Source of the DNA: Anaerolineae bacterium
GTDB taxonomy: Bacteria; Chloroflexota; Anaerolineae; B4-G1; SLSP01
Length of the DNA stretch: 64,000 bases
Assembly: GCA_034432595.1 (NCBI GenBank)
Contig: DAOUBT010000033.1
Coordinates: forward strand, 2,353 to 66,352
Reading direction: 5' to 3'
Position numbers and translations under genes: made by a program. The notes under the pieces are model-generated. The model was not told the origin of the DNA and did not search any database. It saw only the letters and a program-made list of their open reading frames with translations. Every line of letters begins with the position of its first letter. Position 1 is the stretch's first letter. Below, in pieces: positions 5,132-51,029 of the stretch.

Positions 5132-5261
5132 GTAACGGCTTCCATCCCCTATCGGAGCCGTGTTGAACTTGCGCTGCTGTGTTTTCAGCCAGGTACCTGA
5201 GGAGCCAAAGTGGGGCAGGCTAAAGCCATGCCTCGCCTGCCCTGAGGAGGTAAGCCGTTAC
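5132..5261. mobile_element. MITE-like element with ~13-bp terminal inverted repeats and an internal palindrome
   Basis: Left end GTAACGGCTTCC, right end GGTAAGCCGTTAC, internal hairpin GGGCAGGC...GCCTGCCC (5213-5242). A further right end GAGCCGTTAC lies at 5367-5376. Confidence 0.6.
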
Positions 5262-5527
5262 GGGAAAGGTCTTTTTTTCAATAGCATGTTCAGCCACCCA
5301 GAACCCTGGGAAAGCGGCTTGTTTTCGCCGTTTTCCTGTGACAGATCACAACGGCCCTGCTCTCACGAGCCGTTACAGAAAAGCCGTTCAGCCCGGAAAA
5401 ACAGGCCCATGCCCAATTATAAAGAAAAAATTCGCTCTTTATTCTACGCACACCTGATGTATAATTGGGCCGGTCAAGTAAGGCTTTGCGCTTATGATCC
5501 AAGCTTATTTTCAACAAGGAGGCACAC

Positions 5528-8500
5528 ATGAGTGAACGCACTATGGTTACCATAGATGGCAACACCGCTGCCGCGTATATCGCGCACAAGACCAACGAAG
5601 TGATTGCCATCTATCCCATCACCCCGTCCAGCGTCATGGGCGAGCTGGCAGATGAATATTCTGCTCAGGGACGCAAAAATATCTGGGGGACGGTACCTCT
5701 GGTGGTCGAGATGCAATCCGAGGGCGGCGCGGCTGGTGCCGTGCATGGCGCGCTGCAGACCGGCGCCCTGACGACGACCTTCACCGCCTCGCAGGGCCTG
5801 CTCCTGATGATCCCCAACATGTACAAGATCGCCGGCGAGCTGACCTCGACTGTGTTCCACGTCTCGGCGCGCAGCCTGGCCGCGCAGGCGCTTTCGATTT
5901 TCGGCGACCACAGCGACGTGATGGCTGCCCGCAGCACGGGTTGGGCCATGCTCTGCAGCGGCTCGGTGCAAGAGGTCATGGACTTTGCGCTCATCGCGCA
6001 GGCCGCAACGCTCGAAGCGCGCGTTCCCTTCCTCCACTTCTTCGACGGCTTCCGCACCAGCCATGAGGTCAACAAGATTGAACAGCTCAGCGACGATGAC
6101 ATCCGCGCCATGATTGATGACAATCTGGTACGCGCCCATCGCGCTCGCGCGCTCAATCCCGACCGCCCCTTCATCCGCGGCACGGCGCAAAACCCGGATG
6201 TGTACTTCCAGGGCCGCGAAGCCGCCAATCCTTACTATCAGCGCGTGCCCGGCATCGTGCAGAAGGCGATGGATAAGTTCGCCGCCCTTACCGGTCGCCA
6301 GTACCATCTCTTCGACTACGTCGGCGCGCCGGATGCCGAGCGCGTCATCGTCATCATGGGGTCGGGCGCCGAAATCGCGCACGATACGGTGGAATACCTC
6401 ACCGCGCGCGGCGAAAAGGTCGGCGTGCTCAAGGTCCGCCTCTTCCGCCCCTTCAGCGCGGAAGCTTTCGTAGCGGCGCTGCCCAAGAGCGTTAAAATCA
6501 TCGCCGTGCTGGAGCGCACCAAGGAACCCGGCGCAGCGGGCGAACCCATGTACGAAGATTGCGTCGCCGCGCTCTTCGAGCAGGGCCGCACCGATGTCAA
6601 GGTCATCGGTGGACGCTATGGCCTTTCCAGCAAGGACTTCACCCCGGCCATGGTCAAGAGCGTCTTCGACGAGATGGCCAAAGCCGAACCCAAGAACCAC
6701 TTCACGGTCGGCATCATTGACGATGTCACCTACACCAGCATTGACTACGATCCGAGCTTCAACATTGAGCCGCCGGATGTCGTGCGTGCGCTCTTCTACG
6801 GCCTTGGCTCGGATGGTACGGTCGGTGCCAACAAGAACAGCATCAAGATCATCGGCGAAGGGACAAACTTTTACGCGCAGGGTTACTTCGAGTACGACTC
6901 GAAGAAGGCCGGCACGGTCACCGTCTCGCACCTGCGCTTCGGGCCGCGCCCCATCCGCCAGAGCTGCCTGGTCAGCTCCGCGAGCTTCGTGGCCTGCCAT
7001 CAGTTCCCCTTCCTGGAAAAGTACGACATTCTGGCCAGCGCCGAGCCGGGTGCGGTGTTCCTGCTCAACGCTCCTTACCCCGCGGACGAGGTGTGGGACA
7101 AGCTGCCGCGCCGCGTGCAGGAGCAGATCATCGAAAAGAAGCTCAAGTTCTACGCGATTGATGCCTATCGTGTGGCGGAAGAGATGGGCATGGGCGCCCA
7201 CATCAATACCATCATGCAGACCTGCTTCTTCGCCATCTCCGGTGTGCTGCCGCGTGACGAAGCTATTGCCGAAATCAAAAAGTACATCCAGAAGACCTAC
7301 GGGCGCAAGGGCGAGGATGTAGTGCAGAAGAACTATGCCGCGGTAGATAGCGCCCTGGCTAACCTTCACGAAATCCCCGTGCCGGCGCAGCCCACCAGCA
7401 GCATCGAGATGCCGCCCATCGTCCCGGAAGAAGCCCCGGCTTTCGTCAAGGAAGTGAGCGCTGTCATCATGGCGCGCAAGGGCGACACCCTGCCCGTGTC
7501 CAAGATCCCGGTGGATGGCACCTGGCCTTCGGCCACCACGCAGTGGGAAAAGCGCAACATCGCGCTGCAGATTCCGGTCTGGGAACCCGATCTGTGCATC
7601 CAGTGCGCCAAGTGTAACATGGCCTGCCCGCACGCCGTGATTCGCATGAAGATTTACGACCCGGCCCTGTTGGAGAAAGCGCCGGAAGGCTTCCGCGCCA
7701 CCGAGGCCAAGGGACGCGAATTCGCTGGCAAGATGTTCACCATTCAGGTTTCGCCGGAAGACTGCACGGGATGCGGTCTGTGCGTGGAAGTCTGCCCGGG
7801 CAAGGATAAGACTAACCCGAACCGCAAGGCCATCAACATGACCCCGCAGCCGCCCATCCGCGCCCGCGAACGCGCTTACTGGAACTTCTTCTTCAACGAG
7901 ATTCCGGACTTCCCGCGCGAAGAAGCCAACCTCAAGACCATCAAGGGAGCGCAGCTCCTGCGTCCGCTCTTCGAGTTCTCCGGGGCGTGCGCGGGTTGCG
8001 GTGAGACGCCCTACGTGCGCCTCGTGAGTCAGCTCTTCGGCGACCGCGCCATCATCGCCAACGCGACCGGCTGCTCCTCCATCTACGGTGGCAACCTGCC
8101 CACCACGCCCTGGGCGCAGAACGCCGATGGACGCGGTCCGGCTTGGTCCAACAGCCTGTTTGAGGACAACGCCGAGTTCGGCTTTGGCTATCGCCTGACC
8201 CTGGATAAGTACGAAGCCTTTGCGCGCGAGCTGGTTGAGCTGTTCCGCAACGAAATCGGGGCGGAGCTGGCCGATGCCATCCTCAACGCGAAGTTTGAAT
8301 CCGAAAAGGACTACGCCGCGCAGCGCGAGCGCGTGGCGCAGATGCGCATTCGCTTAGAGGGCGTCGAGCATCCGCGCGCGCGCGACCTGCTTAGCATTGC
8401 CGATGTCCTGGTGCCGCGCTCGGTCTGGATCATCGGTGGCGATGGCTGGGCTTACGACATTGGCTACGGCGGCCTGGATCACGTCATGGCGCAGGGACGC

Positions 8501-9088
8501 AAGGTGAACGTCCTGGTGCTGGATACGCAGGTGTACTCCAACACGGGCGGTCAGATGTCCAAGGCCACGCCGCGCGGCGCCATCGCGCGCTTTGCCGCGG
8601 GCGGGCGTCCGCTGCCCAAGAAGGACCTGGGCATGATGATGATGAGTTACGGCAACGTGTACGTGGCGCAGGTGGCCATGGGCGCCAATGACGCCCACGC
8701 CCTCAAGGCCTTCCTGGAAGCCGAGTCCTACCCCGGCCCCAGCCTCATCATCGCCTACAGCCACTGTATCGCGCACGGCATCTCCGAGATGCGCTTCGGC
8801 TTCAATCAGCAGAAGGCCGCGGTGGAAAGTGGCGCGTGGATTCTCTACCGCTACGATCCGCGCCGCGTCGCCGAGGGCAAGAACCCGCTGCAACTCGACT
8901 CCAAGGAGCCGACCCTGCCCATCAAGGAGTACATGTACAACGAGACGCGCTTCCGCGCCCTGCGGCAAACCAACCCGGAGGCCGCTGAGGAGCTGCTCAA
9001 GCTGGCGCAGGAAGATGCCATCGCCCGCTGGAATCTGTATCGGCAGATGGCCGAGATGGACTACAGTTGGGCCGTCCGCAAGGAATAG
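5528..9088 (+). CDS. nifJ: Pyruvate:ferredoxin/flavodoxin oxidoreductase (single-chain PFOR)
   Basis: Motifs YPITPSS, EMQSEGGAAGAVHG, two CxxCxxCxxxCP ferredoxin motifs, ACAGCGE, GGDGWAYDIG and YSNTGGQ. RBS AAGGAGG and TATAAT at 5460-5465. Confidence 0.96.
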   Translation: MSERTMVTIDGNTAAAYIAHKTNEVIAIYPITPSSVMGELADEYSAQGRKNIWGTVPLVVEMQSEGGAAGAVHGALQTGALTTTFTASQGLLLMIPNMYKIAGELTSTVFHVSARSLAAQALSIFGDHSDVMAARSTGWAMLCSGSVQEVMDFALIAQAATLEARVPFLHFFDGFRTSHEVNKIEQLSDDDIRAMIDDNLVRAHRARALNPDRPFIRGTAQNPDVYFQGREAANPYYQRVPGIVQKAMDKFAALTGRQYHLFDYVGAPDAERVIVIMGSGAEIAHDTVEYLTARGEKVGVLKVRLFRPFSAEAFVAALPKSVKIIAVLERTKEPGAAGEPMYEDCVAALFEQGRTDVKVIGGRYGLSSKDFTPAMVKSVFDEMAKAEPKNHFTVGIIDDVTYTSIDYDPSFNIEPPDVVRALFYGLGSDGTVGANKNSIKIIGEGTNFYAQGYFEYDSKKAGTVTVSHLRFGPRPIRQSCLVSSASFVACHQFPFLEKYDILASAEPGAVFLLNAPYPADEVWDKLPRRVQEQIIEKKLKFYAIDAYRVAEEMGMGAHINTIMQTCFFAISGVLPRDEAIAEIKKYIQKTYGRKGEDVVQKNYAAVDSALANLHEIPVPAQPTSSIEMPPIVPEEAPAFVKEVSAVIMARKGDTLPVSKIPVDGTWPSATTQWEKRNIALQIPVWEPDLCIQCAKCNMACPHAVIRMKIYDPALLEKAPEGFRATEAKGREFAGKMFTIQVSPEDCTGCGLCVEVCPGKDKTNPNRKAINMTPQPPIRARERAYWNFFFNEIPDFPREEANLKTIKGAQLLRPLFEFSGACAGCGETPYVRLVSQLFGDRAIIANATGCSSIYGGNLPTTPWAQNADGRGPAWSNSLFEDNAEFGFGYRLTLDKYEAFARELVELFRNEIGAELADAILNAKFESEKDYAAQRERVAQMRIRLEGVEHPRARDLLSIADVLVPRSVWIIGGDGWAYDIGYGGLDHVMAQGRKVNVLVLDTQVYSNTGGQMSKATPRGAIARFAAGGRPLPKKDLGMMMMSYGNVYVAQVAMGANDAHALKAFLEAESYPGPSLIIAYSHCIAHGISEMRFGFNQQKAAVESGAWILYRYDPRRVAEGKNPLQLDSKEPTLPIKEYMYNETRFRALRQTNPEAAEELLKLAQEDAIARWNLYRQMAEMDYSWAVRKE

Positions 9089-50622: not shown

Positions 50623-50635
50623 GGGCAAGACACGG

Positions 50636-50665
50636 GGGAGACAGGCCCACGCAGGCCTGTCTCCC
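50636..50665 (+). terminator. Stable hairpin after the SBP gene (terminator or mRNA stabiliser)
   Basis: GGGAGACAGGCC-CACGCA-GGCCTGTCTCCC; weak U tract. Confidence 0.6.
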
Positions 50666-51029
50666 TTCATCCACGGATGCCTCAACGCGAATTTTCAGGC
50701 CTTGACGGGTTAACATGGATGGCTTTACGCAAGCAGTGGAAACCCGTCCAACCTGAGTTAATCCGCGTCCTGAACATCCAGGGCTGAACGTATACGGTAA
50801 GAGAAACAGGACCGGTTCGGTCCGCTTTTACTTGTGATAAAGCATCAACGCAGGCAGGACCTGGGCTTTTTAACCGTCAGGGATGGGTACGTGGACAGCC
50901 TGGAGGGGTAGCCCGGCTGTGGCTGGACCGCTGCGCTTTCTACTTTCCGGGCGTTTTTCCTGTGCAAGCTCAATTCCGGCGATGCATGGGCGCAAAGAAG
51001 CCGTTACGATTTTTGCTTTCGGAGAAGCT

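Follow-up and report, generated by a model that had tools for sequence, protein, structure and literature searches.

A stretch of 64,000 nucleotides from the genome of an Anaerolineae bacterium (GenBank assembly GCA_034432595.1, contig DAOUBT010000033.1, positions 2,353 to 66,352 of the forward strand; hereafter, the window) contains a dispersed family of intergenic repeats with short inverted ends beginning mostly with GTAA. We consider it probable, at about 0.6, that these repeats are a lineage-specific, non-autonomous family resembling miniature inverted-repeat transposable elements (MITEs), 130–320 bp long, modular in structure and carrying internal hairpins similar to repetitive extragenic palindromes (REPs). 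A preliminary description of this DNA had proposed a MITE family not described before, conserved at its ends and variable in its cargo, and this proposal is supported by the GTAAC-N-GC ends, the modular interiors, the empty sites found in related genomes, and one more copy located in another contig (L132); its alternative suggestion of a recombination-site family gained no support. No previous description of this repeat family was found in the literature.

The left end of the family is defined by the 13-mer GTAACGGCTTACC. Seven matches to it with no more than two mismatches are present in the window, which has 62% GC, versus 0.73 expected, and none of 100 shuffled sequences reached seven; for the exact 10-mer GTAACGGCTT, five matches were found versus 0.06 expected. 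Overall, the 13-mer and its near variants occur at about ten times the chance frequency. Exact 13-mers lie at 5249–5261 (reverse complement), 12948, and 21206, while the sites at 26129 and 26303–26315 (reverse complement) have one mismatch each, and the site at 5132 (GTAACGGCTTCCA) contains the exact 10-mer and has two mismatches over the 13-mer. Two solo ends were detected on the minus strand: GTAACGGCTT at 50998–51007, an exact 10-mer located 24 nt before the start codon of a gene for a livG-like ABC ATPase, and GTAACGGCTC at 5367–5376, a 9/10 match including the exact 8-mer GTAACGGC. The latter together with its flank is a direct repeat of the right end of element A described below (AGCCGTTAC-RGRAAAG). 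All eight good sites fall within the intergenic part of the window, which comprises about 8% of its length (5,308 bp according to a rough gene map), and the single match in a coding region, with two mismatches at 20466–20478 in nusA, looks like a chance occurrence. These results agree with the sites and the exclusively intergenic location reported in the preliminary description, except that the match at 5367–5376 had to be corrected to 9/10. An octamer, GTAACTGCTCAACC, on the minus strand at 12221–12228, between a binding-protein gene and padR, resembles an end of the sister-species variant considered below (GTAACTGCTCACC) and may be either a solo end or a chance match.

Two pairs of sites form the units with inverted ends that had been delineated previously, and both exist exactly as proposed. 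Element A (5132–5261, minus strand, 130 bp) has a long canonical end GTAACGGCTTACCTCC on the right, in reverse complement, and a short end GTAACGGCTTCC on the left; its inverted ends are 88% identical over 16 nt and enclose a REP-like hairpin at 5212–5242 with the direct repeat CCTGAGGAG on either side. Element D (26129–26315, plus strand, 187 bp), which sits within an operon, is bounded by 13-nt inverted ends, GTAATGGCTTACC and the reverse complement of GTAACGGCTCACC, and contains the core CCGCCAGCCTGGATAGGGTATCCGATGATGGCAACAC and a hairpin at 26230–26262. Element C (21206–21521, plus strand, 316 bp) starts with an exact 13-mer and includes the shared core and a hairpin at 21404–21434, and its degenerate right end reads GATCAGCTAC (reverse complement GTAGCTGATC), so that its inverted ends match at 7 of 10 positions. 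Between the 13-mer and TTCAGCA of element C, a second small element of 97 bp, unrelated to the family, is nested (21219–21315, with 12-nt inverted ends CCCATATTCCGC and GCGGAATGTGGG); it is absent from D and has no other copies in the window, and without it element C would be 219 bp long. Element E (about 29854–30092, minus strand, about 239 bp, with an uncertain right boundary) has a hairpin at 29866–29896, and its end at 30080–30092 has decayed to GTAGCTACTTACC (reverse complement), the strains represented by contigs L122–L124 having GTAGCTGCTTACC at this place. Element B (12948–13017, plus strand), located between the promoter of an operon including a PadR regulator gene and the ribF stop codon, is a half element consisting of an exact 13-mer end and a REP-like hairpin at 12991–13017, with no recognisable second end. 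Copies are found in both orientations relative to the flanking genes. Four minus-strand genes located between the pyruvate:ferredoxin oxidoreductase (PFOR) gene and ribF (window 9140–13065), encoding an ABC ATPase, a FecCD permease, a periplasmic binding protein, and the PadR regulator, are missing from the sister species (contig L127), and this 4-kb insertion has element B at its right edge.

The long copies share more than their ends. Identity between elements C and D amounts to 71% over a stretch of 98 nt, and between D and E to 83% over 63 nt; a profile constructed from C, D, and E retrieved only these three long copies in the window, along with the hairpins of A and B and those at 55174–55204 and 55252–55282. 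The conserved left end comprises 22 nt, namely GTAACGGCTTACC followed by TYCAGCACC; behind it lie optional modules and the core CCGCCAGCCTGGATAGGGTATCCG..GCAACAC, then a REP-like hairpin and a tail that varies, and finally a short inverted right end (...GNGCNGTTAC, or (G)AGCCGTTAC). The termini read GTAACGG, GTAATGG, or GTAGCT, and the terminal octamer GTAAC-N-GC is common to both ends and to the sister-species variant. Element A is a short version of this structure in the opposite orientation, and the lengths of the copies are 130, 187, about 239, 242 (L132), and 316 bp. Element E carries an extra module in common with the L132 copy and different from the insert in C. No shared coding capacity was found, as the open reading frames (ORFs) of the different copies do not keep a common frame, and a search with six-frame translations of A, C, D, and E revealed no protein relatives at E ≤ 1. 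Elements C, D, and E have more than 100 nt of their interior in common; this shared interior, copy E itself, the right end of C, and three hairpins located outside the elements had been overlooked in the preliminary description.

The hairpins form a family with the consensus GGGYRGGCGA...TCGCCYRCCC, and its presence in both A and D is in line with the previous suggestion that the two units enclose one and the same type of palindrome. Eight such hairpins, 27–33 nt long and GC-rich, are present in the 64 kb, all of them intergenic and often situated immediately 3′ of a gene or between convergent genes. Outside the elements there are three, at 55174–55204 and 55252–55282 (both between convergent genes) and at 10998–11024 between two ABC-transporter genes, the last (GGGGCAGGGTTAAAGCAACCCTGCCCC) belonging to a "CA/TG" sub-type. 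Sub-families are distinguished by paired changes in the stem (GGGCAGGC..GCCTGCCC versus GGGTGGGC..GCCCACCC). As for the tetranucleotide characteristic of REPs, the GGGTGGGCGA and GGTAGGCGA variants place GTGG or GTAG inside the stem after one to three G, rather than as a clean terminal tag. The predicted folds of whole elements were compared with those of shuffled sequences, giving z-scores of −2.8 for A, −3.7 for D, and −1.8 for C, the last value being not significant.

The comparison with related genomes, suggested in the preliminary description, revealed empty sites at all four comparable loci (A, C, D, and E), which are short in the sister species, with one to four relatives available for each. 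Four other assemblies of the same species, which is present in the sequencing runs SRR7903765, SRR16606022, SRR26992862, and ERR14373510, provided contigs (L001 and L122–L124) that are 93–100% identical to the window, and contigs of sister species (L125 and L127 from GCA_900175155.1; L126, L128, and L135 from GCA_053494975.1; L133 and L134) have about 70–87% nucleotide identity; the named protein relatives of the window ORFs are proteins of Anaerolineae or Chloroflexota metagenome-assembled genomes (MAGs). The mamF–recJ spacer with element C is 499 bp long in the window versus 183 bp in L126. The spacer between an epimerase gene and a tetratricopeptide repeat (TPR) protein gene, occupied by element D, is 256 bp long versus 10 bp in L126 and 21 bp in L135. 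For the pstB–PFOR spacer with element A, the values are 471 bp versus 142, 110, 157, and 111 bp in L127, L128, L133, and L134, and for the spacer between a zinc-ribbon protein gene and a xanthine-dehydrogenase-like gene, with element E, 365 bp versus 126 bp in L125 and 22 bp in L135. Only one match to the 13-mer with no more than two mismatches was found in 65.5 kb of sister-species DNA, versus seven in the window.

The insertion is best resolved at locus C. In the relative, the site reads terminator-TTTTTT-GACGC, with the T-run overlapping the −35 box of the recJ promoter, and in the window it reads terminator-TTTTTTTT-(GTAACGG...CAGCTAC)-TTTTTTT-GACGCC, where the parentheses enclose the element. 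This alignment is unambiguous: the extra DNA starts exactly at the 13-mer and has a T-run on both sides. At locus A, about 300 bp (5057–5360) are extra in comparison with four relatives; this region comprises element A and further AACGGC/GCCGTT half-motifs, seven of the 53 such hexamers in the whole window being clustered in 5118–5390, which looks like a trace of repeated hits or decayed ends. The possibility that D and E flank the TPR and zinc-ribbon genes as the two arms of a composite transposon was rejected, since the same genes are present without the elements in L126 and L135.

The copies occur in the four independent assemblies of the same species, and therefore they are not assembly artefacts. 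Strain comparison was uninformative regarding selection on the elements because the divergence is a recombination mosaic. The strains of L122–L124 are near-identical to the window, apart from a tract of about 4 kb (22019–25990) with about 11% divergence, which extends over the 3′ half of recJ, hutH, and the gene for the epimerase, stops about 100 bp short of element D, and looks like an imported recombination tract. The recJ–hutH spacer located in it (23368–23561) is about 190 bp long, and RecJ here has 585 aa, versus a spacer of about 30 bp and a RecJ of 570 aa in L122 and L124; in L126 the spacer sequence is unrelated, and the extra piece in the window includes the 9-mer CGGCTTACC (23402). 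A different repeat, with CACGGAT/ATCCGTG units, was observed in L135 (4400–4777), where a 378-bp spacer corresponds to one of 131 bp in the window.

Evidence for target-site duplication is suggestive only, in agreement with the absence of a clean duplication noted in the preliminary description. The 8-mers flanking the 13-mer-bounded units match at 7 of 8 positions for C and at 5 of 8 for both A and D, while the values for E and the L132 copy are 0 and about 2; random 8-mer pairs reach at least 5/8 with a probability of 0.04. At C, the eight T on the left and seven T on the right, flush with the 13-mer, replace the six T of the empty site. At D, an insert of 235 bp (26102–26336) in the epimerase–TPR spacer (26092–26347) is flanked by AAGGGAGCGT (26092–26101) and AAGAGGAGCGT (26337–26347), which are direct repeats of the ribosome-binding-site spacer present as a single copy in the relatives. 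In addition, a perfect 12-nt inverted repeat, CGGATGACGGTC, has one arm outside the left end of D (26102–26113) and its complement inside the element (26286–26297), the two arms thus being interleaved with those of the 13-mer pair. Runs of A or T are present on the outer side of nearly every end, which points to an insertion preference for A/T tracts.

A scan of public metagenomes with the 22-nt left end yielded a single match, in contig L132. This copy, which occupies an unrelated locus between lexA and tyrS, is 242 bp long, with a perfect left end (GTAACGGCTTACCTCCAGCACC) and the right end GCGGTTAC. The sister-species match in L127 proved to be a complete variant of 234 bp (22002–22235) located in the intergenic region 5′ of nusA, which has GTAACTGC ends (GTAACTGCTCACC and the reverse complement of GTAACTGCCTACTC) and GC-rich hairpins inside. 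The conservation of the octamer GTAAC-N-GC between this variant and the window copies would be expected of a terminus recognised by a transposase and drifting together with its enzyme. A possible unit of 120 bp, GTAACCGCTCAGG...CTGAGCAGTGG, was also seen 3′ of PFOR in L134 (about 7040–7160). No matches were found in the metagenome scan with the 24-nt core of D and E, in viral contigs searched for paired 13-mers and the hairpin consensus, or in PLSDB plasmids queried with element D by blastn.

No transposase or recombinase domain was detected in the window ORFs scanned with Pfam or covered by precomputed Pfam annotations of the matching Logan contigs, consistent with the preliminary description; neither tnpA/B/C genes nor a gene for a Y1 transposase or a REP-associated tyrosine transposase (RAYT) was found in the window. 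The window also contains no tRNA or tmRNA genes and no Rfam matches at gathering level, and with permissive thresholds the regions of C and D yielded nothing above noise (E ≥ 0.5). No sigma-70-like promoter was predicted inside the elements. An extracytoplasmic function (ECF) sigma promoter of the type TGTAAC-N17-CGTC was rejected by eye because of the lack of a conserved −10 box, as was an integron attC site, since the core sites do not fit RYYYAAC/GTTRRRY.

Bacterial MITEs have been defined as non-coding sequences of 70–300 bp with inverted ends of 15–30 bp, located near genes and capable of strong folding (PMC3733652), and we compared the family with those considered in the same work, Correia/NEMIS of Neisseria, RUP of S. 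pneumoniae, ERIC, and Nezha of cyanobacteria. The elements of the window resemble them in size, lack of coding capacity, inverted ends, intergenic location beside genes in both orientations, strong hairpins, lineage-specific copies with empty sites, and the occurrence of nested and decayed copies. They differ in having inverted ends of 10–13 bp (16 bp at most) that are asymmetric, with about 22 nt conserved on the left and about 10 on the right, in the lack of a clean duplication of fixed length, in mosaic interiors instead of one consensus, and in that no parent insertion sequence is known. The preliminary description had also hinted at the IS66 family. According to PMC11946415, citing Ross et al. 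2021, IS66 elements have inverted repeats of 20–30 bp starting with GTAAGCG and 8-bp direct repeats. The ends of our elements also begin with GTAA, and the flanking 8-mers of C, A, and D could recall such repeats; however, the terminus GTAACGG agrees with GTAAGCG at 5 of 7 positions at best, the inverted ends are shorter, and the clearest duplication, that of D, is 10–11 bp long and offset from the 13-mers. The link to IS66 is therefore weak and not established, and since the ends read GTAACGG, we do not file the family under IS66.

Several observations weigh against the assignment to MITE-like elements. Besides being short, the inverted ends show poor conservation on the right, and the number of good copies that could be studied is only about five. 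The extra DNA found at A and D in comparison with the sister species is longer than the unit bounded by the 13-mers, and the clear 10/11 direct repeat of D lies 27 and 21 nt outside them; the duplications are inconsistent between copies, with E and the L132 copy having none. No presence/absence polymorphism was found among the four near-identical strains, and no transposase with the family ends was seen in the window. If the family is nevertheless of the MITE type, one could propose that a transposase encoded elsewhere in the genome would bind the inverted termini, and that copies would have been inserted into intergenic A- or T-runs beside terminators, promoters, and ribosome-binding sites, at times leaving a short duplication; later, they may decay, take nested insertions, and leave solo ends.

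The main rival is an origin as mosaics of REPs, or bacterial interspersed mosaic elements (BIMEs), in which the hairpins would be REPs spread by a RAYT of the IS200/IS605 type and the 13-mer one of several accessory motifs accompanying them, as in E. coli BIMEs, instead of the terminus of a DDE-type MITE. We regard this as unlikely. The hairpins have the size, GC content, and intergenic location of the REP/REPIN class, three of them lie outside any element, and the presence of GTGG or GTAG near one end of the stem together with paired-change sub-families corresponds to features described for GTAG REPs, which have been reported in Chloroflexi (PMC3733652). Like BIMEs, the elements combine hairpins with other motifs in a mosaic, and this modular make-up and the inconsistent duplications would suit a mechanism without target duplication. 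On the other hand, the 13-mer ends are not stem-loops with a GTAG tag, the tag in the hairpins has no fixed terminal position, and neither a Y1 nor a RAYT gene occurs in the window; the insertion at C behaves as one 316-bp unit bounded by the 13-mer, with the T-run lengthened on both sides, and in the four long copies the best-conserved part is the 13-mer with TYCAGCACC, not the hairpin. A structured non-coding or cis-regulatory RNA family, selected for its fold and acting, for example, in mRNA stabilisation or termination, appears still less probable. Elements A and D do fold better than shuffled sequences, D would be transcribed as part of its operon, and some hairpin stems contain G–T pairs, but good folding would be expected whenever a unit combines inverted ends with an internal palindrome. 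Moreover, Rfam matches are absent even at permissive thresholds, E is opposite in orientation to its flanking genes, the interiors differ, the fold of C is not significant, and the predicted promoters are all outside the elements.

It is also very improbable that the 13-mer serves as the operator of a dimeric transcription factor with GGTAA-N4-TTACC half-sites, marking a regulon. The motif is nearly palindromic, at element B it lies 14 nt 5′ of the −35 box of a perfect TTGACA-17-TATAAT promoter of the PadR operon, and seven AACGGC half-motifs are found upstream of PFOR. However, the "palindrome" is not conserved at its fifth base pair, relatives lack the motif upstream of the same genes, the motif stands at the exact edge of the 316-bp insertion at C, and more than 100 nt of shared sequence follow it in C, D, E, and the L132 copy. 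The preliminary description had named a fixed distance to promoters as the sign of such a site, and the distances to the downstream start codons vary from 24 to about 450 nt, in both orientations. The reading that can be given least credence, and that is largely refuted, is that the elements are fragments derived from 16S rRNA, or that the motif is a product of chance or an artefact. It arises from the identity of GTAACGGCTTACC to a conserved segment of 16S rRNA (GGUAACGGCUUACC, helix 11, about positions 262–275 in E. coli numbering), of which the D variants GTAATGGCTTACC and GTAACGGCTCACC are, like GTAACGGCTTACC itself, common forms. All literature matches to the string are 16S sequences, and a 14-mer match in contig L009 (2739–2752) falls inside an SSU rRNA gene, about 260 nt from its start. 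Nevertheless, the identity ends after 13–14 nt, no SSU rRNA match was found in the elements, the motif is enriched ten-fold, and the loci are identical in four independent assemblies. For the 14-mer GTAACGGCTTACCT, at least 120 matches in unrelated taxa were found in public genome contigs, at least some of them in 16S rRNA genes; thousands of matches would be expected by chance in 596 Gb. The identity of the 13-mer to a segment of 16S rRNA is probably a coincidence. Taken together with the interleaved 12-nt repeat of D and the only clean flanking duplication, that lying outside the 13-mers, this identity leaves room for a further, very improbable idea that the ends are not ordinary transposase-binding repeats and belong to an undescribed mobile or recombination system, which might choose its sites by nucleic-acid pairing or whose RNA might mimic a ribosomal-protein site on rRNA.

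Elsewhere in the window, a GC-rich unit of 39 bp (GCGGGGAGGGCCGGGGAGGGGACTGCCCCCTCTCAAAAG) is repeated head to tail six to seven times at 168–461, with copies 86–93% alike, inside the first long ORF (18–1550), which has DUF559/REase, intein-splicing, and DNA-methylase signals.

To our knowledge, elements of the MITE type are little documented in Chloroflexota. In this uncultured Anaerolineae lineage, the repeats have roughly tripled the length of several intergenic regions. One copy lies between a terminator and the recJ promoter, others are found beside the promoters of PFOR and of the PadR operon, and one splits a formerly tight gene pair, duplicating its ribosome-binding site. Given this placement, the repeats matter for operon annotation and MAG assembly in the group. 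The identity of the 13-mer to a 16S rRNA segment calls for caution in k-mer or probe-based searches of sequence collections, and the repeats themselves could serve as strain or lineage markers.

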